Positions 786-46,668 of a DNA stretch of 64,000 bases are shown one piece after another. Source of the DNA: Escherichia coli (GTDB taxonomy: Bacteria; Pseudomonadota; Gammaproteobacteria; Enterobacterales; Enterobacteriaceae); NCBI RefSeq assembly GCF_013315695.1, contig NZ_CP054353.1. One strand, written 5' to 3'. A model generated the notes under the pieces. It saw nothing but the letters and a program-made list of their open reading frames with translations, had not been told where the DNA came from and did not search any database. Each line of letters starts with the position of its first letter. Positions within the stretch are counted from its first letter, which is position 1. The translations under genes were made by a program, and so were the position numbers.

Positions 786-1673
786 TTAGCCATTCTTTCT
801 TCCCGTTTTCAGTCCTCGATGGAAATCGTTAATTCGCTTAATGGTTTTAACCGCACGCTGCGGCACTGCGGAAGCTACCGACCAGACAATCATTTCCAGA
901 CACAACAATACCGTACCATGTAGCGGCGTTTTCCCTTTTTCATCCCCGCGCGGAACATGAATCACGATACTGGCGTCTTTGCTAAAACGTGAATCCAGCG
1001 CGTTTGTCAGCAAAATAACAGGGATCCCCAGCCGCCTCGCCTCACGAAGCGTTGTCAGCCCTTCCCGGTGCGCAGATTTTTGCGCCATCATGATCAGAAC
1101 ATCGCCACGTTGAAGCGCGATCAGTTGCTCGGCAAGGCCAATACCCGTACGGTTTAGTGCCGTGGCAGGCAAACCTATGCGGTTGAATAGTCGTGCGGTA
1201 TAGTCCGCCAGGATACCCGAAGCGCCAATGCCAAAAATAGCGACTTGCCGTGCCTGCACCAACAACGCTACAGCTTGCGCAAGCGCGTGGCGGTTTTCAG
1301 GCTCTGACAGGACATTACAGGTATACAAATGCCCTTCAAGAACAAAGTCGATTGCGGTGTTAACATCGCTCGTCAAGTTACTCACCGTCGTAGACATCTT
1401 TTCGCTGGAACTAAGGGCTGGACCAAGCCACTGTTCCAGAGTGCGTTTCAGATCACGCAGCCCGGCAAACCCCAGGGCCTGTATAGCCCTGATAACAGTG
1501 GCATCGGAAGTGTTCAACGTGGCCGCAATTTCCATCGCCGTTTGCTCGAGTACCACTTCACGATGCTCATTAATGTAGCTGGCGACAGCTCTTAACCCAG
1601 GCGTTAACTGACTCGCGCGAGTGCGAAAACGCTCACCAAAAATATCAACCCGCGCTTTATCTTTCTGGATCAT
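786..1673 (-). CDS. RpiR/MurR-family transcriptional regulator (N-terminal HTH, C-terminal SIS sugar-phosphate-binding domain)
   Basis: 295 aa ORF; HTH region followed by SIS-like glycine-rich motif (VAIFGIGASG); start overlaps upstream gene stop by 4 nt. Confidence 0.8.
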   Translation of the reverse strand: MIQKDKARVDIFGERFRTRASQLTPGLRAVASYINEHREVVLEQTAMEIAATLNTSDATVIRAIQALGFAGLRDLKRTLEQWLGPALSSSEKMSTTVSNLTSDVNTAIDFVLEGHLYTCNVLSEPENRHALAQAVALLVQARQVAIFGIGASGILADYTARLFNRIGLPATALNRTGIGLAEQLIALQRGDVLIMMAQKSAHREGLTTLREARRLGIPVILLTNALDSRFSKDASIVIHVPRGDEKGKTPLHGTVLLCLEMIVWSVASAVPQRAVKTIKRINDFHRGLKTGRKNG

Positions 1674-2617
1674 TTAGCCTCCGGTAGAGGTCGCCCTGCA
1701 ATTTGTGATTGTATCTGCGCAGCCATCAGCCCCAGTGATGCAAAGGAGTTAGAAATTGCCTCTTCACGAGAAATCAGCACATAACGCCCGGAACGACAGG
1801 CAGTCAGAAACTGACACCATCCCGGCATGACTTTTTCCATTGCTGCCAGCTCATCCTGAGGTTTACCACCGGTGTCACCGCGCCAGGTTGCAAAAACAAA
1901 ATCGGCATCCAGTTCAGGTAAACGCTCCGCGCTCACATCCATTCGCCCACCTTCAGGAATGCTCTCAATCAGCGGCGGAAAACGAAAACCAGCATCGCGT
2001 AATACCCGCCCCAGCGAATGATAGCTATGCATCACATTAATTTTTCCCTGGTTTGCCTGAATCACCGATACCGTTATTTTTTGGCTGTCCAGCGTCGCCT
2101 TCAGCGCATTGATTTGTGCCTGATAGCGGCGTTCAAGTATCGCCAGCTGCGACTGCGTTCCTGTAAGTTCTGCCAGCTTGCGATAGATTTCTGGCGCGCC
2201 CCCTTTGAGATGATCAATGCTCACCGTGGGCGCAATTTTTTCAAGTTGTTCAATGGGCGTATTACGGGTCGGTTCTGTGATGATCAAGTCAGGCTTTGCC
2301 GCCACAATCGCTTCAATATCAATATCAGCGGTACCAATAAAGGCGATCGATGAATTATCAAAGTCGACACCTGTCAATAACGCGCCAGATCGAATGAAAT
2401 GGCTACCGTCAGGCCGAGTTCGCCCGTGGCTGGCGACAGGAGGTACACCGAGCTCAATCAGAGGAATAGTGATATCAAGATCGTGTAAAGAGACAATTCT
2501 CTTTGGATGAGCAGGAACAGTGACTTTGCGCCCTAAATCATCAGTAAATACCTGAACAGGTTCTGTTGCACGGGAAAAAAATGACAACAGTATCAGCAGA
2601 GAAAAAAATAAACGCAT
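1670..2617 (-). CDS. periplasmic substrate-binding protein of a siderophore/heme/B12-type (FecB-like) ABC importer
   Basis: ORF 1670..2680; start placed at internal Met preceding a signal peptide (MRLFFSLLILLSFFSRA). Confidence 0.75.
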   Translation of the reverse strand: MRLFFSLLILLSFFSRATEPVQVFTDDLGRKVTVPAHPKRIVSLHDLDITIPLIELGVPPVASHGRTRPDGSHFIRSGALLTGVDFDNSSIAFIGTADIDIEAIVAAKPDLIITEPTRNTPIEQLEKIAPTVSIDHLKGGAPEIYRKLAELTGTQSQLAILERRYQAQINALKATLDSQKITVSVIQANQGKINVMHSYHSLGRVLRDAGFRFPPLIESIPEGGRMDVSAERLPELDADFVFATWRGDTGGKPQDELAAMEKVMPGWCQFLTACRSGRYVLISREEAISNSFASLGLMAAQIQSQIAGRPLPEAK

Positions 2618-2627
2618 ATAACTCCCG

Positions 2628-3677
2628 TTAAAAACTGTTCCTGCGCTGCCAGAGCAGTAGCAAAAAAAATGGTCCACCAATCAGTGAGATAATGATTCCG
2701 GCAGGCAGTTGCAAAGGCAAAAAAGCCAAACGACCAATGCTATCCGCCAGAATAACTAACAACGCCCCCGATACCGCACTCCCCAGCAGTAATGTCGTCT
2801 GCCCGCCACGTAGAATAAAACGTGATATATGGGGTGCTATCAATCCGACAAAACCGATGTTACCAACACACGAAACGCAGACGGCTGTCAGGATTATGGG
2901 TGCGGCGACACGTAACAACGCCAGACGAGAACTATTCACCCCTAACCCGGTTGCAACCTGATGACCAAGCAGAGCGATATCCGCCGTCCTGGCGGTGAAC
3001 AGCAATAAAAGAGCGGCTGGCAACATCCAACAGGCTGAAATACCGACTAACATCCAGTTAGCTGCATGCAGGCTTCCCGATAACCACATCAATGCAGTTT
3101 GTACATCTCGAACATCTGCAGTGGTCATAAATACACCGATACCGGCGGCGAAAAACCAAGAAACACCAATACCAATCAGAACAAATCGCGGGCGGGAAAT
3201 ATCGCGCGCACAAAAAATCACGATTAAAGCCACCAACAGGCCACCAGCAAGACCAGCCACTGGACGCCAGAACACTCCCAGCATTGGAAACTGGAAAATC
3301 AGCCACAGCACAGCCACGCTACATCCTTCTTTGACGCCGATTAACCCAGGATCGGCAAGGCCGTTACGTGCAATGGATTGCATTGCGGCCCCTGCCATAC
3401 CTAACATGGCCCCGCATAGCAATGCCATGATGACTCTCGGCAAGCGAATATCCTGCACAATATAACGTGCGTCTGTGCTTACGTTTTCTGGAGCAAACAA
3501 CGCTCGTCCTACTTCCGATGCCGGAACAGAGAAAGAACCCTGCATCAGACCGAATATCAGTATTCCAACCGCAAACAGAAACAGCCCACCAAGCAACAGC
3601 AGATTTTTAGGGCGTACCAGTGTCGAAAACTTACCAACACGTAGTGGGCGTAGCCCGACGTTCATTATCCGACTCAT
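2628..3677 (-). CDS. ABC importer permease, FecCD family
   Basis: 349 aa polytopic membrane ORF with FecCD-like sequence. Confidence 0.8.
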   Translation of the reverse strand: MSRIMNVGLRPLRVGKFSTLVRPKNLLLLGGLFLFAVGILIFGLMQGSFSVPASEVGRALFAPENVSTDARYIVQDIRLPRVIMALLCGAMLGMAGAAMQSIARNGLADPGLIGVKEGCSVAVLWLIFQFPMLGVFWRPVAGLAGGLLVALIVIFCARDISRPRFVLIGIGVSWFFAAGIGVFMTTADVRDVQTALMWLSGSLHAANWMLVGISACWMLPAALLLLFTARTADIALLGHQVATGLGVNSSRLALLRVAAPIILTAVCVSCVGNIGFVGLIAPHISRFILRGGQTTLLLGSAVSGALLVILADSIGRLAFLPLQLPAGIIISLIGGPFFLLLLWQRRNSF

Positions 3678-4657
3678 TTGAACATCCTCGTCGCCATAAT
3701 GACAAAAACAGGCGCACCAACTAACGCCGTCATGACACCGGTCGCTAATTCATGGGGCGTGAAAAGCGTACGGGCAATAATATCTGCCAGTAATAACAAA
3801 AGTGCGCCGACACAAGCTGAAAGAGGGAGCAGAACGCGCAGATCCGCTGATACCAGGCGCCGGACAATCTGCGGTACTAGCAGGCCGACAAAACCAATGG
3901 GGCCAGCAATCGATACGGCTGCGCCACAGAGCAACGCGATCGCAAGCAGGGTGAATGTTCGCGTGCGGAGTACAGAGACGCCCAGCCCCTGCGCCATGCG
4001 ATCGCCCAGTGCCAACATGTTAAGGGAGGGTGCAAGGTAAAGGGCTAACACAAATCCCCCCAGAGAAAACCAGGCGGACGTACCCAGCGTCGCCCAATCC
4101 TGCCCCGCTAAATCACCTGCTAGCCATGTCCGCATCGCCAGCAGTGTTTGTTCGTCAAGAATCAGGATTGCAGCCGTTATTGAGGACACGAACGCCGATA
4201 GCGCCACGCCGCATAAAGTAACTTTCATTGGCGTTAACCCTGAACGCCCTGCGGAGGAAAGCAGCAATATCAACAGGAACAATAACGCGCCGCCCGTAGA
4301 TGCCAGCAGTGGGCGTCCAACCGGAAAGGCCAGCCCAAGCGCACTGGCAGCAACGACAGCAAGAGCGGCTCCGGCATTTAAGCCTAAAATATGTGGCTCC
4401 CCCAATGGGTTACGAATGACAGCCTGCAACAAAGCACCAGCAACTCCAAGAGAAGCACCGGTAAGCAATGCTGCCGCTAAACGCGGCAAACGGAGTCTTA
4501 CAATTACGTTGTGATCGAAGTTTTGCGGTTCAAAATGAAGAAATGCCTGCAATACCGTTTGTGGTGCAATAAATCGGGCACCAATCCCTGGATATACCAC
4601 GCATCCCACCAGCAGTAAGGCGAGGAAAATTACAGTAACCAGCCCTGTGCGCATCAT
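3674..4657 (-). CDS. ABC importer permease, FecCD family
   Basis: 327 aa polytopic membrane ORF; 4-nt overlaps with both neighbours. Confidence 0.8.
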   Translation of the reverse strand: MMRTGLVTVIFLALLLVGCVVYPGIGARFIAPQTVLQAFLHFEPQNFDHNVIVRLRLPRLAAALLTGASLGVAGALLQAVIRNPLGEPHILGLNAGAALAVVAASALGLAFPVGRPLLASTGGALLFLLILLLSSAGRSGLTPMKVTLCGVALSAFVSSITAAILILDEQTLLAMRTWLAGDLAGQDWATLGTSAWFSLGGFVLALYLAPSLNMLALGDRMAQGLGVSVLRTRTFTLLAIALLCGAAVSIAGPIGFVGLLVPQIVRRLVSADLRVLLPLSACVGALLLLLADIIARTLFTPHELATGVMTALVGAPVFVIMATRMFK

Positions 4658-5463
4658 ACTTTTTCTACACCACGAAACGGCATGAAGAACGGCTTTCCCG
4701 TCAGAGGATTTATTGATGCGTGAACATCAACGTCAAAGACAGCTTTTACCAGCTCAGGCGTGCAATGCTCCCCCTCATTCAACACACGCACCACTTTCCC
4801 CTGGCGTAAAAATATCAACGTATCGCCATAATTGACGGCAAAATTCAGATCATGCAACACCACGACGACTGTACGCCCGTGATGACGTGTTAAATCATGT
4901 AATAACTCAAGAATTTCAACCTGATAACGTAAATCAAGCCAGGTTGTGGGTTCATCCAGCAGGATATAAGGCGTCTTTTGCGCCAACACCATCGCAATCC
5001 AGCAACGCTGACGCTGCCCGCCAGAGAGTTTTTCAACAGGTAAATGTGCAAACTCCTGCGTACCCGTTAATTTCAGGGCCTCTTCTACCGCCAGCTCATC
5101 GGCGTCGCTCCATTGACGAATGAAATTCTGCCAGGGAAAACGCCCACGCGACACCAGTTCATAAACGGTTAAGCCCTCCGGCAATAATGGCGACTGCGGC
5201 AAGATCCCAAGTCTACGGGATAACGCTTTCGTTGGTTGCTCGTGAATCGCTTTGCCATCAAGCAATATCGAACCGCCCATGGGTTGCAAGATACGTGCAA
5301 TGGTGCTGAGCAACGTCGACTTTCCACAGCCGTTTGCCCCAACCAGAACGGTCATTTTTTCTGTGGGAACGGAGAAAGAAACACCATCAACAATGATCTT
5401 CTTGTGATACCCGGCAGAAACATTGTCGAGGATCAGCCCCTGCCCTTTTGCGTTATGTGCCAC
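4654..5463 (-). CDS. ABC importer ATP-binding protein (FecE-like)
   Basis: Walker A GANGCGKST, ABC signature LSGGQRQR, Walker B ILLDEPT. Confidence 0.85.
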   Translation of the reverse strand: MAHNAKGQGLILDNVSAGYHKKIIVDGVSFSVPTEKMTVLVGANGCGKSTLLSTIARILQPMGGSILLDGKAIHEQPTKALSRRLGILPQSPLLPEGLTVYELVSRGRFPWQNFIRQWSDADELAVEEALKLTGTQEFAHLPVEKLSGGQRQRCWIAMVLAQKTPYILLDEPTTWLDLRYQVEILELLHDLTRHHGRTVVVVLHDLNFAVNYGDTLIFLRQGKVVRVLNEGEHCTPELVKAVFDVDVHASINPLTGKPFFMPFRGVEKV

Positions 5464-5469
5464 GTGTAC

Positions 5470-5836
5470 GCCAACTTAATCAAAGACAAACAAAAATAAA
5501 ACTCATTCTCCTTTGAGAGTTTGACGCCACAAAATGTAGTAGTCAAGCAGTTAAAAGCCACACAAAAACAAGGTAAATAACAGGTAAAATATTTTTGCAC
5601 ATAAAAATAAAAACATTAAATATCAATAATTTAAAAGCAATCAAATTGTATAAACTTTTCATAAAAACACATGTAGCAATTTTTTGTTATTTCTCATTTA
5701 CTACTACATTACTGCGTGATTGAATGATTCTCAATTACATATCCGATGGCGAAATAACAAACGGATAGTGCTTAGTGAGCAATAAGAAACAATTTTCACT
5801 CGCGACAATCCGCGAGTTTTTGGGATAACAGACTAA
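5470..5836. promoter_or_regulatory. AT-rich divergent promoter region between the ABC operon and the receptor gene; weak Fur-box-like motif near 5717-5738
   Basis: about 370 bp of AT-rich sequence between divergent starts; tgattgaatgattctcaattac resembles the Fur consensus only partially. Confidence 0.3.
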
Positions 5837-7978
5837 ATGGCTATGTTCACACCTTCATTCTCAGGACTCAAAGGTCGGGCGCTCTTTTCACTGCTTTTTG
5901 CGGCACCGATGATTCATGCAACAGACTCTGTAACGACCAAAGATGGCGAAACAATCACTGTTACAGCAGATGCAAATACCGCAACTGAGGCAACCGATGG
6001 TTATCAACCTCTGAGCACCTCTACGGCGACATTAACCGATATGCCGATGCTGGATATCCCGCAGGTGGTCAATACGGTTAGCGATCAGGTTCTGGAAAAC
6101 CAGAATGCGACAACGCTGGATGAGGCGCTTTATAACGTCAGTAACGTGGTACAGACCAATACATTAGGCGGGACTCAGGATGCTTTTGTACGCCGTGGGT
6201 TTGGCGCAAACCGGGATGGCTCCATCATGACCAACGGCCTGCGAACTGTACTTCCTCGCAGTTTCAACGCCGCCACAGAACGTGTGGAAGTGCTAAAAGG
6301 TCCGGCCTCCACGCTGTATGGCATTCTCGATCCTGGTGGATTGATTAACGTCGTGACCAAGCGCCCGGAAAAAACATTCCATGGTTCTGTCTCAGCCACG
6401 TCCTCCAGTTTTGGCGGAGGCACTGGGCAACTTGATATCACAGGTCCCATTGAAGGCACTCAGCTGGCATACCGCCTGACGGGGGAAGTGCAGGATGAAG
6501 ATTACTGGCGAAACTTCGGTAAAGAGCGCAGTACATTTATTGCCCCGTCACTCACCTGGTTTGGTGATAATGCAACAGTAACCATGCTCTATTCCCATCG
6601 GGACTATAAAACTCCGTTCGATCGTGGAACGATTTTCGACCTTACGACGAAACAGCCCGTAAACGTTGATCGAAAAATACGTTTTGACGAACCGTTTAAT
6701 ATTACAGATGGTCAGTCCGATCTGGCGCAACTCAACGCAGAATATCATCTCAATAGCCAGTGGACAGCGCGCTTTGATTACAGCTACAGCCAGGATAAAT
6801 ACAGCGACAATCAGGCTCGCGTTACCGCGTATGATGCAACGACAGGAACGCTGACACGGCGTGTTGATGCAACTCAGGGATCTACCCAGCGTATGCATTC
6901 TACTCGTGCGGATCTGCAAGGGAATGCTGATATTGCTGGGTTCTATAATGAGATTCTGGGTGGGGTGTCATATGAATATTATGATCTTCTGCGCACAGAT
7001 ATGATTCGCTGTAAAAACGCTAAAGATTTCAATATCTACAACCCCGTTTATGGCAATACCAGCAAATGCACAACGGTTTCGGCGTCGGACAGTGATCAGA
7101 CGATCAAACAGGAGAGCTACTCAGCGTATGCACAGGACGCGCTCTATCTGACCGATAACTGGATTGCCGTCGCCGGGATCCGCTATCAGTATTACACGCA
7201 GTATGCGGGTAAAGGCCGTCCTTTTAATGTCAATACTGACAGCCGCGATGAACAATGGACGCCCAAACTGGGGTTAGTCTACAAACTGACGCCATCGGTA
7301 TCCTTATTTGCCAATTATTCGCAAACATTTATGCCGCAGTCGTCAATTGCCAGCTACATTGGCGATCTTCCACCGGAATCATCTAATGCTTACGAAGTCG
7401 GGGCAAAATTCGAGCTATTCGATGGTATCACCGCAGATATTGCGCTGTTTGATATCCATAAACGTAACGTGTTGTATACCGAAAGTATTGGTGATGAAAC
7501 CATTGCCAAAACGGCAGGCCGTGTTCGTTCAAGAGGGGTAGAAGTCGACCTTGCGGGAGCATTAACTGAAAACATTAATATCATTGCCAGCTACGGCTAT
7601 ACCGATGCTAAGGTTCTGGAGGATCCTGATTATGCAGGGAAACCATTGCCGAATGTTCCTCGTCATACCGGTTCGCTATTCCTGACTTATGACATTCATA
7701 ACATGCCTGGCAATAACACACTGACGTTTGGCGGTGGTGGACATGGCGTAAGCCGTCGTTCGGCAACCAATGGGGCTGACTATTATCTGCCAGGCTATTT
7801 CGTTGCCGATGCCTTCGCTGCATACAAAATGAAATTGCAGTATCCGGTCACACTGCAATTAAACGTCAAAAACCTGTTTGATAAAACGTATTACACCTCT
7901 TCCATCGCCACAAATAATCTGGGGAATCAGATTGGCGATCCGCGTGAAGTGCAATTCACGGTGAAAATGGAATTTTGA
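5837..7978 (+). CDS. TonB-dependent outer-membrane receptor
   Basis: 713 aa; signal peptide, TonB-box-like ETITVTA, plug and barrel motifs, C-terminal Phe. Confidence 0.85.
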   Translation: MAMFTPSFSGLKGRALFSLLFAAPMIHATDSVTTKDGETITVTADANTATEATDGYQPLSTSTATLTDMPMLDIPQVVNTVSDQVLENQNATTLDEALYNVSNVVQTNTLGGTQDAFVRRGFGANRDGSIMTNGLRTVLPRSFNAATERVEVLKGPASTLYGILDPGGLINVVTKRPEKTFHGSVSATSSSFGGGTGQLDITGPIEGTQLAYRLTGEVQDEDYWRNFGKERSTFIAPSLTWFGDNATVTMLYSHRDYKTPFDRGTIFDLTTKQPVNVDRKIRFDEPFNITDGQSDLAQLNAEYHLNSQWTARFDYSYSQDKYSDNQARVTAYDATTGTLTRRVDATQGSTQRMHSTRADLQGNADIAGFYNEILGGVSYEYYDLLRTDMIRCKNAKDFNIYNPVYGNTSKCTTVSASDSDQTIKQESYSAYAQDALYLTDNWIAVAGIRYQYYTQYAGKGRPFNVNTDSRDEQWTPKLGLVYKLTPSVSLFANYSQTFMPQSSIASYIGDLPPESSNAYEVGAKFELFDGITADIALFDIHKRNVLYTESIGDETIAKTAGRVRSRGVEVDLAGALTENINIIASYGYTDAKVLEDPDYAGKPLPNVPRHTGSLFLTYDIHNMPGNNTLTFGGGGHGVSRRSATNGADYYLPGYFVADAFAAYKMKLQYPVTLQLNVKNLFDKTYYTSSIATNNLGNQIGDPREVQFTVKMEF

Positions 7979-14958: not shown

Positions 14959-16119
14959 ATGGAAAGAGTCAGTATTACCGAGCGCCCGGACTGGCGCGAA
15001 AAAGCCCACGAATACGGTTTCAATTTTCACACCATGTACGGCGAGCCGTACTGGTGTGAAGATGCTTACTACAAGTTGACCCTCGCCCAGGTTGAAAAGC
15101 TGGAAGAAGTCACCGCCGAACTGCACCAGATGTGCCTGAAAGTGGTGGAAAAAGTGATCGCCAGCGATGAGCTGATGACCAAATTCCGCATACCAAAACA
15201 CACCTGGAGTTTTGTGCGCCAGTCATGGCTGACGCACCAGCCATCGCTTTATTCGCGTCTTGATCTGGCGTGGGATGGCACTGGCGAACCTAAGCTTCTG
15301 GAAAATAACGCCGATACGCCAACGTCACTATACGAGGCGGCGTTCTTTCAGTGGATCTGGCTGGAAGATCAGCTTAACGCCGGTAACTTGCCGGAGGGCA
15401 GCGACCAGTTTAACAGTTTGCAAGAAAAGCTGATCGATCGCTTCGTTGAGCTGCGTGAACAGTATGGCTTCCAGTTGCTGCATCTCACCTGCTGTCGCGA
15501 CACGGTGGAAGATCGCGGAACCATTCAGTATTTGCAGGACTGCGCGACGGAAGCTGAAATCGCTACCGAGTTCCTCTACATCGACGATATCGGGTTAGGT
15601 GAAAAAGGTCAGTTCACGGATTTACAGGATCAGGTGATTTCCAACCTGTTCAAGCTGTATCCGTGGGAATTTATGTTGCGTGAGATGTTCTCCACCAAGC
15701 TGGAGGATGCAGGCGTACGCTGGCTGGAACCGGCGTGGAAGAGCATTATCTCCAACAAAGCGCTTCTACCGCTACTGTGGGAGATGTTCCCGAATCACCC
15801 GAACCTGCTGCCCGCTTATTTTGCGGAAGATGATCATCCGCAAATGGAAAAATATGTGGTTAAACCGATCTTCTCCCGTGAAGGCGCAAACGTGTCGATC
15901 ATTGAGAACGGCAAAACCATTGAAGCAGCGGAAGGTCCGTATGGCGAAGAAGGGATGATTGTTCAGCAATTCCACCCGTTACCGAAATTCGGCGACAGCT
16001 ATATGCTGATTGGTAGCTGGCTGGTGAACGATCAACCTGCCGGAATTGGCATTCGTGAAGACCGTGCATTGATCACCCAGGATATGTCTCGGTTTTATCC
16101 GCATATTTTTGTTGAGTAA
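14959..16119 (+). CDS. ygiC: glutathionylspermidine-synthetase-like ATP-grasp protein YgiC
   Basis: 386 aa ORF, sequence recognised. Confidence 0.85.
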
Positions 16120-16603
16120 TACAGCTTAATATTGCCCCGATAAGCGGGGCAATCTCTTATAATCCACCATTCATAATTCCCATCAATATATAAACACATA
16201 CATATCCAACCTTTATTTAACATTAATACTCAATTTAATGTTAAATCGTCATATGCAAGCGATATTGTAATTAAAGTAAGTGAATACATCACAACATAAC
16301 TATTTGATATTATTTGAATACTTTACTTTTATCTCACCAGATTTAAATTTAATAATTAAAAAACAATGTTGCAGGGATCACACTACACAGTATTGAACAT
16401 TGTGATTGATATATTGCCCCCCTACTATCCATTAAACATAAATATTTGTTTCACCGAATAACAACATATTTAAAAGAAACACAAAAGCATTCTCACTCTT
16501 TATTGAATTAATATTCATATTCACGTAACGAATTTATTAGAACCCTCTCAACAGTCGATATTCATCATTATTATATATTTGCGTTATATAAGGAGATATA
16601 TCC

Positions 16604-18400
16604 ATGTTTGATAAATATAGAAAAACACTCGTAGCCGGAACTGTGGCGATAACCCTGGGTTTGTCAGCATCGGGGGTGATGGCTGCGGGTTTTAAACCAG
16701 CGCCGCCTGCCGGGCAACTGGGTGCGGTCATTGTCGATCCCTACGGCAATGCACCACTGACCGCTTTGGTTAACTTAGATAGCCATGTTATTTCTGACGT
16801 CAAAGTTACCGTCCATGGGAAGGGCGAAAAAGGCGTAGAAATCAGCTATCCCGTGGGTCAGGAATCACTAAAAACTTACGATGGTGTACCGATTTTTGGT
16901 CTTTATCAGAAATTTGCTAACAAAGTGACCGTTGAGTGGAAAGAAAACGGCAAGGTCATGAAAGATGATTATGTGGTGCACACTTCGGCCATCGTCAACA
17001 ATTACATGGATAACCGCTCCATCTCCGACCTACAGCAAACCAAAGTCGTTAAAGTCGCGCCAGGTTTTGAAGATCGCCTCTATCTGGTTAATACCCACAC
17101 CTTTACCGCCCAAGGTTCCGATCTCCACTGGCATGGTGAGAAAGATAAAAATGCCGGTATCCTTGATGCGGGTCCGGCAACTGGCGCACTCCCTTTTGAT
17201 ATCGCGCCCTTTACTTTCATCGTCGATACCGAAGGTGAATACCGCTGGTGGCTGGATCAAGACACTTTCTACGATGGTCGTGACCGCGATATCAACAAGC
17301 GTGGTTATCTGATGGGTATCCGCGAAACGCCACGCGGCACCTTTACCGCTGTACAAGGTCAGCACTGGTACGAGTTCGACATGATGGGGCAGGTGCTCGA
17401 AGATCACAAACTACCGCGCGGATTTGCTGACGCTACTCATGAATCCATTGAGACGCCAAATGGCACAGTATTGTTGCGCGTAGGTAAGAGCAATTACCGT
17501 CGCGATGACGGCGTACACGTCACCACCATTCGTGACCATATCCTCGAAGTCGATAAATCTGGTCGCGTTGTAGATGTATGGGATCTGACGAAGATCCTCG
17601 ATCCGAAACGCGATGCACTGCTCGGCGCGCTGGATGCAGGTGCAGTTTGCGTTAACGTTGACCTTGCCCATGCAGGACAACAGGCAAAACTGGAACCAGA
17701 TACACCGTTCGGCGACGCTCTGGGTGTAGGGCCAGGCCGTAACTGGGCGCACGTTAATTCCATCGCTTATGACGCAAAAGATGACTCAATTATTCTCTCT
17801 TCTCGTCACCAGGGTGTTGTGAAGATTGGTCGTGATAAGCAAGTGAAATGGATCCTTGCACCCTCTAAAGGTTGGGAAAAACCGCTGGCCAGCAAGCTGC
17901 TGAAACCGGTTGATGCTAACGGTAAGCCAATTACCTGTAACGAAAATGGCCTGTGCGAAAACTCAGACTTCGACTTTACCTACACCCAGCATACCGCCTG
18001 GATTTCCAGCAAAGGAACGCTCACCATTTTTGATAATGGCGATGGTCGTCATCTGGAACAACCTGCCTTACCAACCATGAAATATTCCCGCTTTGTGGAA
18101 TATAAGATTGATGAGAAGAAAGGCACCGTTCAGCAAGTGTGGGAATACGGTAAAGAACGTGGCTACGATTTCTATAGCCCAATCACCTCCATCATTGAAT
18201 ATCAAGCCGACCGTAACACCATGTTTGGCTTCGGTGGTTCTATTCATTTGTTCGATGTCGGGCAGCCAACCGTCGGTAAGTTGAACGAAATCGATTACAA
18301 AACCAAAGAAGTGAAAGTGGAAATCGACGTGCTGTCAGATAAACCCAATCAGACTCACTATCGTGCATTGTTAGTCCGTCCACAACAGATGTTCAAATAA
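16604..18400 (+). CDS. assT: periplasmic arylsulfate sulfotransferase
   Basis: 598 aa, signal peptide, sequence recognised as ASST as described in uropathogenic E. coli. Confidence 0.8.
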   Translation: MFDKYRKTLVAGTVAITLGLSASGVMAAGFKPAPPAGQLGAVIVDPYGNAPLTALVNLDSHVISDVKVTVHGKGEKGVEISYPVGQESLKTYDGVPIFGLYQKFANKVTVEWKENGKVMKDDYVVHTSAIVNNYMDNRSISDLQQTKVVKVAPGFEDRLYLVNTHTFTAQGSDLHWHGEKDKNAGILDAGPATGALPFDIAPFTFIVDTEGEYRWWLDQDTFYDGRDRDINKRGYLMGIRETPRGTFTAVQGQHWYEFDMMGQVLEDHKLPRGFADATHESIETPNGTVLLRVGKSNYRRDDGVHVTTIRDHILEVDKSGRVVDVWDLTKILDPKRDALLGALDAGAVCVNVDLAHAGQQAKLEPDTPFGDALGVGPGRNWAHVNSIAYDAKDDSIILSSRHQGVVKIGRDKQVKWILAPSKGWEKPLASKLLKPVDANGKPITCNENGLCENSDFDFTYTQHTAWISSKGTLTIFDNGDGRHLEQPALPTMKYSRFVEYKIDEKKGTVQQVWEYGKERGYDFYSPITSIIEYQADRNTMFGFGGSIHLFDVGQPTVGKLNEIDYKTKEVKVEIDVLSDKPNQTHYRALLVRPQQMFK

Positions 18401-18417
18401 TTAAGAAGGGAATAAAA

Positions 18418-19086
18418 ATGTCGAAATTAGGGATCTCATCACTATTTAAAAGCATACTGCTTACTGCAGCTTTGGCTGTTTCATTTACCGCCTCTGCATT
18501 TACCGAAGGCACGGATTACATGGTTCTGGAAAAACCTATTCCGAATGCAGACAAAACGCTGATTAAGGTATTCAGCTACGCCTGCCCGTTCTGTTACAAG
18601 TACGACAAAGCGGTTACCGGTCCGGTATCGGAAAAAGTGAAAGATATCGTTGCTTTCACGCCGTTCCATCTGGAAACCAAAGGTGAATACGGCAAACAAG
18701 CAAGCGAAGTCTTTGCGGTCTTGATCAATAAAGATAAAGCAGCAGGCATTTCCTTATTTGATGCTAACTCTCAGTTTAAGAAAGCCAAGTTTGCCTACTA
18801 CGTGGCTTATCACGACAAAAAAGAACGCTGGTCTGACGGTAAAGATCCGGCTGCTTTTATCAAAACCGGTCTGGATGCCGCAGGTATGAGTCAGGCGGAT
18901 TTTGAAGCGGCACTGAAAGAACCAGCGGTTCAAGAAACACTGGAAAAATGGAAAGCCTCTTATGATGTCGCCAAAATCCAGGGGGTTCCAGCCTATGTCG
19001 TTAATGGTAAGTACTTGATCTACACCAAGAGCATCAAATCCATCGACGCGATGGCAGACCTTATCCGTGAGTTAGCAAGCAAATAA
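18418..19086 (+). CDS. dsbL: periplasmic thiol:disulfide oxidoreductase DsbL (DsbA paralogue)
   Basis: 222 aa, signal peptide, CPFC active-site motif. Confidence 0.8.
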
Positions 19087-19100
19087 CAGGGAAACAGGCT

Positions 19101-19772
19101 ATGGGTATTAAGGGAATGTGGAAAGATCTTCGCACATCACCAGTTGACACACTGGTCAGATGGCAGGAGCAACGCTTGTTGTGGTTGTTAATGGCCGTTG
19201 CGATGGGCGCGTTAATTATCCTGGCGCACTCTTTCTTCCAGATCTATCTCTACATGGCACCCTGTGAGCAATGTGTATACATTCGCTACGCCATGTTTGT
19301 GATGGTTATTGGAGGATTGGTTGCAGCGATCAACCCAAAGAACATCATCCTAAAGCTAATTGGCTGCGTGATGGCATTTTACGGCAGCATTTTGGGACTG
19401 AAGTTTTCGCTCAAACTGAACGATATCCACCATGCAGTACATAATCCGGATCCCGATTCACTGTTTGGCGTACAGGGTTGCTCTACCGATCCAACTTTTC
19501 CCTTTAACCTGCCGCTGGCACAGTGGGCACCAAATTGGTTCAAGCCTACCGGGGATTGTGGCTATGACGCACCAATCGTTCCTGATGGCGTCACACTGAG
19601 CAGCACGCAACAGTGGTTTGTGGAAATGTATCAGCAATCTGAAGGCTGGTATCTGCTACCACCATGGCATTTTATGAATATGGCTCAGGCTTGTATGCTG
19701 GCTTTTGGTATGTGTCTGGTGCTGCTGGTCATTATGAGTGGCGCATGGGCGCTTAAAATCATCAGAGGCTAA
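19101..19772 (+). CDS. dsbI: membrane disulfide oxidoreductase DsbI (DsbB paralogue)
   Basis: 223 aa polytopic protein with CxxC (CEQC) and a second Cys pair. Confidence 0.8.
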
Positions 19773-19778
19773 CTCAGC

Positions 19779-19818
19779 AACACCCGAAGCCAGTCATTCT
19801 GGCTTCGGGTTCTTTTAT
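19779..19818. terminator. terminator hairpin between dsbI and convergent ygiD
   Basis: stem acccgaagccag/ctggcttcgggt followed by tcttttatt. Confidence 0.55.
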
Positions 19819-20633
19819 TAACCTATCTGCACCGACAGCATACTTAAACTGCCCATTTCTATACCATCGACCGGAATGGTAATTGGCTCCTGCCCATCCC
19901 ACGCACCTAACACATACAACAACGGCAGATAGTGCTCTGGCGTTGGGTTCGATAACGCGCCACCTTCATGGTCGAGATAATTCACCAGAGGATGTTGTTC
20001 CACCGGCCCTTGCCACGTCAGATTCGCTTTCACATACTCATTAAACGACGTCGCCCACGGATACGGTGAACTATCACCGTGCCACTTCACTGTACGCAGG
20101 TTATGCACCACGTTGCCACTGGCGACCAACATTATCCCTTCATCACGCAGCGCCGCGAGTTTGCGCCCCATTTCGAAATGCCAGGCGGCAGGTTTGCTAC
20201 TGTCGATACTCAACTGCACCATCGGGATATCGGCGTCAGGATACATCTTAATCAGTACGCCCCACGAGCCGTGGTCGAAGCCCCAGGCTTCTTTATCCAG
20301 CGTCACAGGGACCGGCGCTAACAGCTCAACCAGATGCTGTGCCAGCGCAGGTGAACCCGGAGCAGGATAATGCGTATCGTACAGCGCCTGCGGGAAGCCA
20401 CCAAAGTCATGAATCGTGGGCGGCGTCTCCATCGCGGTCACTCCTGTTCCACGGGTAAACCAGTGAGCCGAAACCACCACTATTGCTTGCGGGCGTGGCA
20501 ATGTCATCCCCAACGTCTGCCAGCTGCGGGTATACAAATTATCTTCCAGCACGTTCATCGGACTACCGTGACCTAAAAACAATGCTGGCATACGTGTTGA
20601 AGACATGATGATATCCTTAACTAAAGGTGTCAT
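19818..20633 (-). CDS. ygiD: LigB-family extradiol dioxygenase (DOPA-dioxygenase-like) YgiD
   Basis: 271 aa ORF; true start may be the internal Met at MSSTRMPALF. Confidence 0.85.
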   Translation of the reverse strand: MTPLVKDIIMSSTRMPALFLGHGSPMNVLEDNLYTRSWQTLGMTLPRPQAIVVVSAHWFTRGTGVTAMETPPTIHDFGGFPQALYDTHYPAPGSPALAQHLVELLAPVPVTLDKEAWGFDHGSWGVLIKMYPDADIPMVQLSIDSSKPAAWHFEMGRKLAALRDEGIMLVASGNVVHNLRTVKWHGDSSPYPWATSFNEYVKANLTWQGPVEQHPLVNYLDHEGGALSNPTPEHYLPLLYVLGAWDGQEPITIPVDGIEMGSLSMLSVQIG

Positions 20634-20748
20634 TTTGATATCCTCACAATACGCTTGTTCGGCGGAGTAAGAACCCGGATAACAATGATGATGATCATCA
20701 GTTATTTTGACGATCTGCCTGAAAGTGAAGATTTATAAGGAGTTGTCG

Positions 20749-21522
20749 ATGTCAGTACCTCTCATTCTGACCATACTGGCGGGGGCAGCCACGTTTATTG
20801 GCGCGTTTCTCGGCGTTCTCGGGCAAAAACCCTCGAACCGCTTACTGGCGTTTTCGCTAGGATTTGCGGCGGGGATCATGTTGCTCATCTCATTAATGGA
20901 AATGCTTCCTGCCGCATTAGCCGCCGAAGGAATGTCACCTGTGTTGGGTTATGGAATGTTTATCTTCGGTCTGCTTGGCTATTTTGGCCTGGACCGCATG
21001 TTGCCACATGCGCATCCGCAGGATTTAATGCAAAAATCGGTGCAGCCGTTGCCAAAATCGATCAAGCGCACAGCCATTCTGCTCACTCTCGGCATCAGTC
21101 TGCATAACTTCCCGGAAGGGATTGCCACCTTTGTCACGGCGAGCAGCAACCTGGAGCTGGGCTTTGGCATCGCACTGGCCGTTGCGTTACACAATATTCC
21201 TGAAGGTCTGGCGGTTGCAGGCCCGGTTTACGCGGCAACGGGGTCTAAACGCACCGCGATTCTTTGGGCGGGGATTTCTGGACTGGCAGAAATTCTTGGT
21301 GGTGTGCTGGCGTGGTTAATCCTCGGTAGCATGATTTCCCCGGTGGTCATGGCGGCAATCATGGCGGCGGTTGCAGGAATTATGGTGGCGCTCTCGGTTG
21401 ATGAATTAATGCCGCTCGCCAAAGAGATTGACCCTAATAATAACCCCAGCTATGGCGTACTATGTGGAATGTCAGTGATGGGATTCAGTTTAGTGCTGCT
21501 ACAAACGGCGGGAATTGGTTAA
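20749..21522 (+). CDS. zupT: ZIP-family zinc transporter ZupT
   Basis: ORF 20707..21522; start placed at [12 protein letters not shown] (257 aa). Confidence 0.9.
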
Positions 21523-21579
21523 AAGCAACATCAGAAGTTGTCCAGCGCATGGACAACTTCTGCCAGCTTCACTAAAGCC

Positions 21580-21750
21580 TTATTCTACCTTTTCGGCTGT
21601 CTCTTCTCTCGTACTGTTTAAGTATTTGTTCCGCGCTTCAAGCAGTGCGTCTCTGTCCTGGCGAAACGCCCGACAATAACGTTTCAAATGCAGGAAATAA
21701 CCCACAACAACAAGAGCAATCAATACAATCCAGTACCAGGCGATAAACAT
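21580..21750 (-). CDS. small single-pass membrane protein, hypothetical (about 56 aa)
   Basis: ORF with TAAGGG RBS 7 nt upstream of ATG; one predicted TM helix then charged tail; no homologue recognised. Confidence 0.4.
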   Translation of the reverse strand: MFIAWYWIVLIALVVVGYFLHLKRYCRAFRQDRDALLEARNKYLNSTREETAEKVE

Positions 21751-21940
21751 CCTTTTACCCTTAATATTTAACAATACTAAACATTTAGCGCATAAATTTC
21801 ACATATCCTTTTTCGGATATATTCATATGGTCGCATAATAACGGAACAATTATATGATTTTGATCATAATGAAAAAGAATGCCTGATATTAATGAAATTT
21901 TCTCATAGAAAGAGAAGCGGAATTAACATCTTGCTTAGCA

Positions 21941-21980
21941 GGGAAAAATAAAAACCGAAGCCTGCTACAACTTCGGTTTC
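21941..21980 (-). terminator. rho-independent terminator of ribB
   Basis: stem aaaccgaag/cttcggttt followed by a T-run on the minus strand. Confidence 0.6.
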
Positions 21981-22011
21981 TTGATTAAGGCAGTAAATTA
22001 AGCAGCGGTTT

Positions 22012-22689: not shown

Positions 22690-22930
22690 TGGTTACCAGA
22701 ATCAGGGCAGTCTTAGGAGTGGCGGCATATAGCCAAAATAACGTGAGCGGGTCCATGCCCGACAGAATCGTTACTCTCTCCCATCCGGACTCTAACCGTC
22801 GGCCCCGGAATTACACCGGATCTGCTGTCCTTTGAGTTCGCACCCAAAGCGCTCGCGGGCTTTCAACTGAGTTGATTTACCGCCGGTGGGGAATTTCGCC
22901 CCGCCCTGAGAATAAGCGGATTCACTATAA
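22690..22930 (-). ncRNA. sroG: FMN riboswitch (RFN element) in the ribB leader
   Basis: minus-strand sequence AGGGCGGGGCGAAATTCCCCACCGGCGG ... GGATGGGAGAGAGTAACG matches RFN conserved blocks; bounds approximate. Confidence 0.7.
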
Positions 22931-26319: not shown

Positions 26320-26480
26320 ATCAACAATCGGGGAGTCAGCAAGGGGCTGAAACGGGAAAGCCCCTCCCGAGGAAGGGGCCTTATAGAAGGAAAGGGTTAT
26401 GATGAAGTTCGTCATCATACTGGTTGTGTTGTTACTGTTAAGTTTCCCGACTTACTAACAACTCATCAGAGGGGGGAGAA
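26320..26480 (-). ncRNA. Sib-type antisense RNA (antitoxin) overlapping the ibs ORF; bounds approximate
   Basis: inferred from the ibs ORF and flanking GC hairpins (ggggct...agcccc, cccctcc...ggaagggg); K-12 carries sib/ibs loci between yqiK and hldE. Confidence 0.45.
26399..26458 (+). CDS. Ibs-family type I toxin (19 aa hydrophobic peptide MMKFVIILVVLLLLSFPTY)
   Basis: tiny ORF with AAGGAAAGGG RBS; peptide nearly identical to E. coli Ibs toxins. Confidence 0.65.
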   Translation: MMKFVIILVVLLLLSFPTY

Positions 26481-26577
26481 ATCCTCCCTTACCCTTGTTC
26501 CTTTACTTTAGGTTGAAAAAACAACAGCGTCAATAGGTCTATCCGGCACAACGCGAGAACTGTGAAGCGCTTTCCGG

Positions 26578-46104: not shown

Positions 46105-46668
46105 ATGCAGCAAGGATACTACTCTCTCCCCGCCCTTATTTCCGCTCTCGATGCCGGGAAAAAGGTGAAATACCTGTGGTTCTGGGGCCATCAACCTGCC
46201 GCGAATCACGAAATTACCGCCTCTTGCTTTAGCCAGTGGTGGCAGGGTTCGCCTTTTACCTATGATGGTATAACCTATGCCACCGCAGAACACTGGATGA
46301 TGGCGGGAAAAGCGCGGCTGTTTAATGACAGTAAAACACTTGCCAGAATTCTGGCGGCGGCGACCCCGGCAGAAGCCAAAAAGCTGGGGCGACAGGTGAC
46401 AAACTTTGACGAGCAATGCTGGCAAGCTTGCTGCTTTGATCTGGTCTGCGAATGGAACTACCATAAATTTAGCCAACATTCGGCATTAAAAACATTCCTG
46501 CTGAATACGCAGCCTCGCATTCTGGTTGAAGCCAGCCCGGTGGATAAAATCTGGGGGATTGGCCTTGCAAAAGATCATCCCCATGCCGGTGTGCCATCTC
46601 ACTGGAAGGGGAAAAATCTGCTGGGATTTGCGCTTATGGTAGTCAGAGACCGTTTGGCGGAAGAATAA
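46105..46668 (+). CDS. NADAR-family protein (YbiA-like, DUF1768)
   Basis: 187 aa; motifs shared with E. coli YbiA (TAEHWMMAGK vs TSEHYFQAQK; IWGIGL...KGKNLLGFALMVVRDRL vs YWGDGGHGKGKNRLGYLLMELREQL); AAGGA RBS. Confidence 0.7.
   Translation: MQQGYYSLPALISALDAGKKVKYLWFWGHQPAANHEITASCFSQWWQGSPFTYDGITYATAEHWMMAGKARLFNDSKTLARILAAATPAEAKKLGRQVTNFDEQCWQACCFDLVCEWNYHKFSQHSALKTFLLNTQPRILVEASPVDKIWGIGLAKDHPHAGVPSHWKGKNLLGFALMVVRDRLAEE

Follow-up and report, generated by a model that had tools for sequence, protein, structure and literature searches.

Known assT-dsbL-dsbI systems and the locus in the window

The closest described relative of the locus considered here is the operon assT (astA)-dsbL-dsbI of uropathogenic Escherichia coli (UPEC) strain CFT073, reportedly characterized in 2008 by Grimshaw et al. 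in J Mol Biol and by Malojcic et al. in PNAS. Its counterpart is found in a stretch of 64,000 nucleotides from E. coli (contig NZ_CP054353.1, hereafter the window, numbered from its first letter), where three open reading frames (ORFs) on the plus strand, at 16604-18400, 18418-19086 and 19101-19772, correspond to assT, dsbL and dsbI. Genes, gene order, locus, catalytic residues, CPFC active site and cysteine pairs are the same as in CFT073, and the two copies differ by three conservative substitutions (D30N and I122V in AssT, A102V in DsbL). The segment is very probably a chromosomal assT-dsbL-dsbI operon that would work and be controlled as set out below. A sequence-only reading had placed three co-directional genes, assT, dsbL with its CPFC motif and dsbI, between ygiC and ygiD; the reported span, 16604-19772, opens exactly with the start codon of assT and closes with the stop codon of dsbI, and both the coordinates and the domains bear the assignment out.

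The CFT073 enzyme AssT is a periplasmic homodimer that acts on phenolic donors and acceptors by a ping-pong mechanism via sulfo-His436, independently of 3'-phosphoadenosine 5'-phosphosulfate (PAPS) (PMC13426309). Its natural donor and acceptor are still unclear after 40 years, as the sequence-only reading had remarked (PMC13426309). The protein has a single disulfide, Cys418-Cys424, on which it depends, and DsbL has a standard redox potential of about -95 mV, against about -122 mV for DsbA (PMC8405906). DsbL and DsbI have been described as specific for AssT (PMC13426309, PMC7810732), and a tricistronic, co-transcribed operon has been reported for both CFT073 and Salmonella Typhi (PMC13426309, PMC7810732, PMC4264507). 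In the orthologous cluster of S. Typhi, H-NS represses and LeuO activates expression (PMC4264507). The operon is therefore already known in detail, from its genes and protein structures to its mechanism and helper pair, and its regulation has been described in a sister species; the additions made here are modest and concern an exchange of genomic slots between genera, the picture of an immobile but lineage-variable cassette and a conserved upstream block offered as a regulatory hypothesis.

The cluster of Salmonella enterica (S. Typhi IMSS-1 and S. Typhimurium; SeDsbL, PDB 3L9U) shows the same tricistronic layout, with AssT and DsbL of S. arizonae 86% and 88% identical, respectively, to the proteins of the window; conservation between Salmonella and the window extends to the ribosome-binding region and, farther upstream, to the block TGT-N8-TCACA ... 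TACTAT. The K-12 pair DsbA/DsbB has the same folds and the same relay, in which a periplasmic CXXC oxidase is re-oxidised by a four-cysteine membrane partner; DsbL and DsbI are nevertheless paralogues and not orthologues of this pair, with CPFC in DsbL instead of the CPHC of DsbA, and DsbI exceeds DsbB in length by about 45 residues. In Campylobacter, astA, which encodes the AssT homologue, has DsbL-like and DsbI-like genes nearby as in the window, but the homologue is only about 45% identical, the genes are arranged in another order and orientation, and DsbL-like genes often come in two copies. In metagenome-assembled genomes of oral or gut Campylobacter, the genes for DsbL-like (up to 67% identity) and DsbI-like (up to 57%) proteins lie a few kb at most from that of the AssT homologue, which is less well conserved than these helpers, and one locus (L048) carries two tandem AssT paralogues.

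The three proteins and their predicted function

AssT (16604-18400, plus strand, 598 aa) corresponds to a periplasmic PAPS-independent aryl sulfotransferase of the bacterial ASST family (cluster I). It consists of an N-terminal Ig-like domain (PF17425, E 1e-28, residues 42-127) and a C-terminal beta-propeller ASST domain that covers the full Pfam profile (PF05935, E 5e-136, residues 146-587); NCBIfam holds no matching model. A Sec-type signal peptide occupies residues 1-27 (16604-16684) and ends in AMA. Residues 28-598 align end to end with the crystallized CFT073 enzyme (3ELQ, 3ETS and 3ETT), with 569 of 571 positions identical and D30N and I122V (mature numbering, relative to 3ELQ) as the substitutions. 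His436, the catalytic residue, and His252, His356, Asn358, Arg374 and Thr501, which bind the sulfuryl group, are all at the expected positions, the list of residues and its EcAST numbering being taken from a 2026 review (PMC13426309), and Cys445 and Cys451, which are Cys418 and Cys424 of the mature protein, are both kept.

DsbL (18418-19086, plus strand, 222 aa) is a periplasmic DsbA paralogue that matches PF01323 (E 2e-12, Pfam), with CPFC at residues 56-59 (29-32 of the mature protein) and, for the cis-proline loop, a GVP motif within QGVPAYV. Between its residues 28-222 and CFT073 DsbL (3C7M), 194 of 195 positions are identical, A102V (mature numbering) being the sole substitution; this near-identity and that of AssT had been named beforehand as a check on the assignment. 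Its score of 77.3 bits is far under the 279-bit cutoff of the NCBIfam DsbA equivalog model, as expected of a paralogue distinct from the housekeeping DsbA. The chains of 3ELQ and 3C7M both start exactly at the predicted signal-peptidase cut (...GVMA|AGF and ...TASA|FTE, respectively), which supports export to the periplasm.

DsbI (19101-19772, plus strand, 223 aa), the membrane-bound DsbB paralogue, matches PF02600 (E 2e-23, Pfam) and, over residues 3-222, the DsbI equivalog model NF003304 of NCBIfam with 417.7 bits for a cutoff of 212; the score with the DsbB model is 83 bits for a cutoff of 157. In the HMMER alignment with E. coli DsbB, Cys55/Cys58 (CEQC) and Cys127/Cys153 fall on Cys41/Cys44 and Cys104/Cys130 and form the two periplasmic-loop pairs, and hydrophobic stretches lie at about residues 23-51, 57-104 and 191-223. 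Codon changes between E. coli alleles are mostly synonymous (synonymous/non-synonymous: 47/4, 60/10 and 45/2 in assT; 38/4 in dsbL), and the cassette genes are under clear purifying selection within E. coli.

Enzymatic and oxidation steps are proposed for the window because they were shown for the near-identical CFT073 proteins. AssT would be exported to the periplasm through its Sec-type signal peptide and, as its 99.6% identity to the assayed enzyme suggests for this strain, would transfer the sulfuryl group of a phenolic sulfate ester to a second phenol without PAPS, in a ping-pong reaction that passes through a transiently sulfated His436. Its Cys418-Cys424 disulfide would be introduced by the strongly oxidising DsbL through CPFC, and DsbL would in turn be re-oxidised by DsbI in the membrane. 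The three genes would be transcribed as a unit from the AT-rich upstream region, which would be silenced by H-NS and depend on an activator.

Operon layout and upstream region

The cassette is flanked upstream by ygiC (14959-16119, plus strand) and downstream by the convergent ygiD (19818-20606, minus strand), which encodes a 4,5-DOPA extradiol dioxygenase. The spacers within it are short, 17 bp between assT and dsbL, with GAAGGG, and 14 bp between dsbL and dsbI. A Shine-Dalgarno sequence, AAGGAG (16590-16595, plus strand), can be read 8 nt 5' of the assT ATG, and in the alignment of upstream regions TATAAGGAGATAT at the ribosome-binding region of assT is unchanged across genera. An intrinsic terminator of the operon (19782-19819, plus strand) consists of a perfect GC-rich stem of 12 bp (19782-19810) with a loop of 5 nt, followed by TCTTTTATT; it was the best match of the terminator scan (-23.5 kcal/mol, z -9.0) and abuts the ygiD stop codon, and no T run follows the stem on the minus strand. 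Within the three genes the scan returned just weak matches with stems of 5-6 bp. This layout and the single strong terminator predict that assT-dsbL-dsbI is one transcription unit.

Another hairpin, ATTGCCCCG-ATAAG-CGGGGCAAT (16131-16153, plus strand), begins 12 nt past the ygiC stop codon and has a 9-bp stem (16131-16139/16145-16153; -15.4 kcal/mol, z -3.3). No T run follows it, the terminator scan did not pick it up, and a hairpin at this position after ygiC is kept in other Escherichia species. It is probably the terminator of ygiC, located 450 bp ahead of assT, rather than a signal of the cassette. Terminator hairpins had been proposed on both sides of the three genes, the upstream one at about 16131-16151; both hairpins are real, and only the downstream one can be assigned to the cassette, the other being best taken as the end of ygiC.

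The 450 bp of AT-rich DNA from the ygiC hairpin to assT belong to the cassette unit. The assT upstream control region as a whole (16120-16603, plus strand, 484 bp) is very AT-rich, with a guanine-plus-cytosine (GC) content of 28%, compared with 44.8% in dsbL and 51.4% in the whole window. It is probably silenced by H-NS and dependent on an activator, because the S. Typhi orthologue is so controlled and no good promoter match was found here: at a threshold of 9/12 the plus-strand promoter scan upstream of assT gave no site, and in a relaxed scan sigma-70 matches reached 8/12, which is weak. These features also agree with the reported laboratory silence of the CFT073 copy. No small ORF of 20-42 aa in the upstream region has support. 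A search of the whole window with Rfam at the gathering threshold returned nothing in or adjoining the cassette, and the same was true at E<=1 over 16000-19900 except for a chance snoRNA match.

The upstream region evolves much faster than the cassette genes among E. coli alleles; in one allele class, exemplified by SCU-313, it is 79% identical to that of the window, and the genes are 93-98% identical. Alignments of this region across genera and across E. coli alleles define three conserved islands within the fast-evolving DNA, at 16215-16246, at about 16355-16430 and in the 80 bp that directly precede the ATG. The first is a palindrome found by the repeat search, ATTTAACATTAA N8 TTAATGTTAAAT (16215-16246, unstranded), with perfect arms of 12 nt, and is a candidate regulator site. 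The second holds a candidate CRP-like site, TGTTG-N6-TCACA (16367-16382, unstranded), which matches TGTGA-N6-TCACA at 8/10 positions and is the sole match of at least 8/10 in the ygiC-assT intergenic region; its TGT and GATCACA bases are invariant in Escherichia, Citrobacter, Salmonella, Pseudocitrobacter and Intestinirhabdus. The relaxed scan also gave a candidate distal promoter, TTGTGA-17 nt-TACTAT (16400-16428, plus strand), with an implied leader of about 170 nt; transcripts from it would start near 16435, and those from a proximal TATTAT match about 30 nt ahead of the ATG. TACTAT is conserved between genera, and its spacing from TCACA is identical in Escherichia, Citrobacter and Salmonella. 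The centre of the CRP-like site would lie near -60.5/-61.5 of this candidate promoter, the classical class I position.

It is conceivable, though we consider it rather doubtful, that the operon is actually controlled from the block at 16355-16430, with a class I site for cyclic AMP-CRP and a weak promoter set in H-NS-bound DNA. A literature search on catabolite or CRP control of assT found nothing relevant, and the conserved block with its CRP-like site, together with the very divergent upstream alleles, appears to be mildly new. If the block did act in this way, synthesis of AssT would be confined to host fluids that are poor in carbon, for instance urine, the divergent upstream alleles of E. 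coli (up to 21%) would tune its control, and the silence of the operon in the laboratory, an obstacle to the search for the natural substrate, could be bypassed.

Junction, distribution and genomic slot in E. coli and other genera

The segment absent from K-12 comprises 3,698 bp (16120-19817, plus strand) in place of a hairpin spacer of 37 bp. In MG1655 (NC_000913.3) the stop codons of ygiC and ygiD are 37 bp apart, which agrees with the proposed absence of the cassette from K-12, and homology to MG1655 and to the K-12-like JME66 resumes exactly at these two stop codons. The 37-bp spacer is a hairpin resembling repetitive extragenic palindromic (REP) elements (-21.2 kcal/mol; locus L001, 1721-1757, and locus L061, 3583-3619), and the ends of the 3,698-bp segment share no sequence with it. 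Spacers between ygiC and ygiD in Citrobacter and Salmonella, where the cassette is not at this position, also hold REP-like hairpins. A simple deletion in the K-12 lineage was considered but fits poorly: the empty site is an unrelated REP-like hairpin with no scar of the cassette ends, so the empty state is not a plain deletion scar.

The distribution in E. coli was obtained from RefSeq complete assemblies, whose sampling bias carries over to all counts, with presence scored at a coverage of at least 80%; the flanks match in 5,425 of the 5,426 genomes. The cassette was found in 1,508 of them (28%), never as a partial copy and always on the chromosome except for one place labelled as plasmid. 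Carriers include UPEC and bloodstream isolates, and others came from poultry, a dog, river water, soil, marine sediment or a probiotic product; O157:H7 and the relatives of K-12 have an empty ygiC-ygiD junction. The cassette thus marks lineage and not pathotype. Its description as a unit of uropathogenic E. coli stands for the near-identity with CFT073 and is too narrow for the range of hosts, environments and other Escherichia species in which it occurs. Cassette alleles differ by 2-6%, which is similar to or above the divergence of the flanks, and the allele of the window is rare, just 45 of the 1,508 carriers being at least 99% identical to it over the cassette. For the strain under study, the cassette mainly serves to type it as a non-K-12 E. 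coli that carries a textbook accessory operon. The window was also recovered, with 5 mismatches in 64 kb, in the E. coli blood-culture isolate AF3 from the UK (NZ_OZ547117.1, 2760871-2824870); one of these mismatches, at 16316, is in the assT upstream region.

A survey across species, in which one genome per bacterial species was scanned and neighbour genes were then located by tblastn, found the order assT-dsbL-dsbI in Escherichia whittamii, in an Escherichia cryptic-clade genome and in E. albertii, and also in Pseudocitrobacter, Citrobacter, Salmonella arizonae, Intestinirhabdus, Edwardsiella, Budvicia, Leminorella and Limnobaculum. Nine or more genera of Enterobacterales thus share this order, in differing genomic contexts. 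In E. whittamii and the cryptic-clade genome the cassette is in the same ygiC/ygiD slot as in the window, and where flanks are available the gene order in Escherichia is ygiC, cassette, ygiD-zupT-yqiD, ribB. In Salmonella, Citrobacter and Intestinirhabdus, on the other hand, it is ygiC, ygiD-zupT-yqiD, cassette, ribB, so that the slot is yqiD/ribB, and in Pseudocitrobacter it is ygiC, a yqiD-like gene, cassette, ygiD-zupT. These slot differences between genera suggest that the cassette stayed in the tolC-ribB neighbourhood and swapped places there with the ygiD-zupT(-yqiD) block; in the window, cassette and block together span 16120-22011. Pseudocitrobacter shows an intermediate order, in which the yqiD-like gene is directly 5' of assT.

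No integrase or transposase was found between ygiC and ygiD, no tRNA near the cassette, and the repeat search for direct or inverted repeats at its borders gave short chance pairs only. The plasmid collection contained no genuine copy, its full-length matches being records of 4.9 Mb that are presumably mislabelled chromosomes, and the phage collection contained none either; other matches in the two collections were distant Salmonella paralogues or unannotated fragments. The Salmonella records filed as plasmids (H84-H89) carry distant aryl-sulfate sulfotransferase paralogues, with 65-73% DNA identity over short stretches. By these observations the cassette is not a mobile genomic island.

Alternative explanations

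No observation contradicts the identification of the operon, and several set limits to parts of the interpretation given here. In S. Typhi, extra start sites for dsbL-dsbI were reportedly found by Gallego-Hernandez in 2012, and the organisation may thus not be strictly that of a single transcript. The REP-like hairpin at the empty site does not fit a plain deletion of an ancestral cassette. DsbA/DsbB also folds AssT, and does so at a similar rate in vitro (PMC7810732, PMC8405906); the helper pair DsbL/DsbI is not strictly required for AssT, and the proposed "private" oxidase pair holds as a reported specificity for AssT but is too strong as a word. The chromosomal copy of CFT073 has been reported to be silent in standard laboratory conditions, and the operon of that strain is dispensable for colonisation of the mouse bladder (PMC7810732).

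One alternative takes the cassette for a horizontally acquired virulence islet specific to uropathogens and inserted between ygiC and ygiD. Its absence from K-12 and O157:H7 and the low GC content of the upstream region and of dsbL relative to the window would fit such an origin, and reviews call the operon UPEC-associated and up-regulated in infected urine (PMC13426309, PMC6067686, PMC8405906). Yet the locus is without integrase, transposase, tRNA or flanking repeats and without genuine copies on plasmids or phages, it keeps the same slot in E. whittamii and in a cryptic-clade genome and stays close to it in Salmonella, Citrobacter and Intestinirhabdus, and some of its carriers were isolated from soil, a river, marine sediment, poultry, a dog or a probiotic. 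Dispensability in the bladder and an allele divergence similar to or above that of the flanks point the same way, and the islet appears quite unlikely. The lack of mobility marks and the slot shared with other Escherichia argue instead for an old, lineage-variable operon: on balance we lean towards a chromosomal module that would be ancestral at least to Escherichia and is missing from some E. coli lineages.

The helper genes raise a different question, whether DsbL/DsbI is mainly a second general pathway of periplasmic oxidation whose linkage to assT is incidental. DsbL partly replaces DsbA, complementing it in part for motility, and the oxidation of AssT by DsbA at a similar rate in vitro could be taken in the same sense (PMC8405906, PMC6067686). 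An incidental linkage would sit poorly with a gene order kept in at least nine genera of Enterobacterales, with Campylobacter, where AssT homologues also adjoin DsbL/DsbI-like genes, and with the published specificity of DsbL for AssT (PMC13426309, PMC7810732); since the linkage recurs in Enterobacterales and in Campylobacter, the pairing can be argued to be selected, and a mainly general pathway seems unlikely. It is highly improbable that in this strain the cassette has lost its function and is decaying. The silence of the CFT073 copy in laboratory media (PMC7810732) and the want of a strong promoter match upstream of assT would agree with decay, but all three ORFs are full length with their catalytic residues and cysteines intact, the E. 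coli alleles differ from one another far more by synonymous than by non-synonymous changes and the cassette is whole in every one of the 1,508 carriers. An intact chromosomal operon encoding AssT and its helper pair, as proposed above, remains the interpretation that we favour.

Other features of the window

A second segment absent from K-12 lies at 786-7978, between ygiN and parE. It contains a gene for an RpiR-family regulator, a four-gene FecCD-type iron-siderophore ATP-binding cassette transporter on the minus strand and a TonB-dependent siderophore receptor on the plus strand (5837-7978). Of the 5,426 complete E. coli genomes, 1,870 contain this segment, O157:H7 EDL933 among them, and K-12-like strains have an empty ygiN/parE junction; its distribution is unlike that of the assT cassette. 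According to the AF3 annotation, an IS1A element (59154-59851) follows directly after an amino-acid permease gene (57867-59120) and is itself followed by an N-terminally truncated ORF (59868-60077). A gene annotated as ybiA, of the riboflavin-intermediate N-glycosidase family (46105-46668), lies between rpoD and mug; in K-12, mug presumably comes directly after rpoD. The window also holds a flavin mononucleotide (FMN) riboswitch ahead of ribB (22769-22917, minus strand), a Sib antitoxin RNA opposite ibsE (26384-26533, minus strand) and a tRNA-Ile (47356-47428, plus strand).

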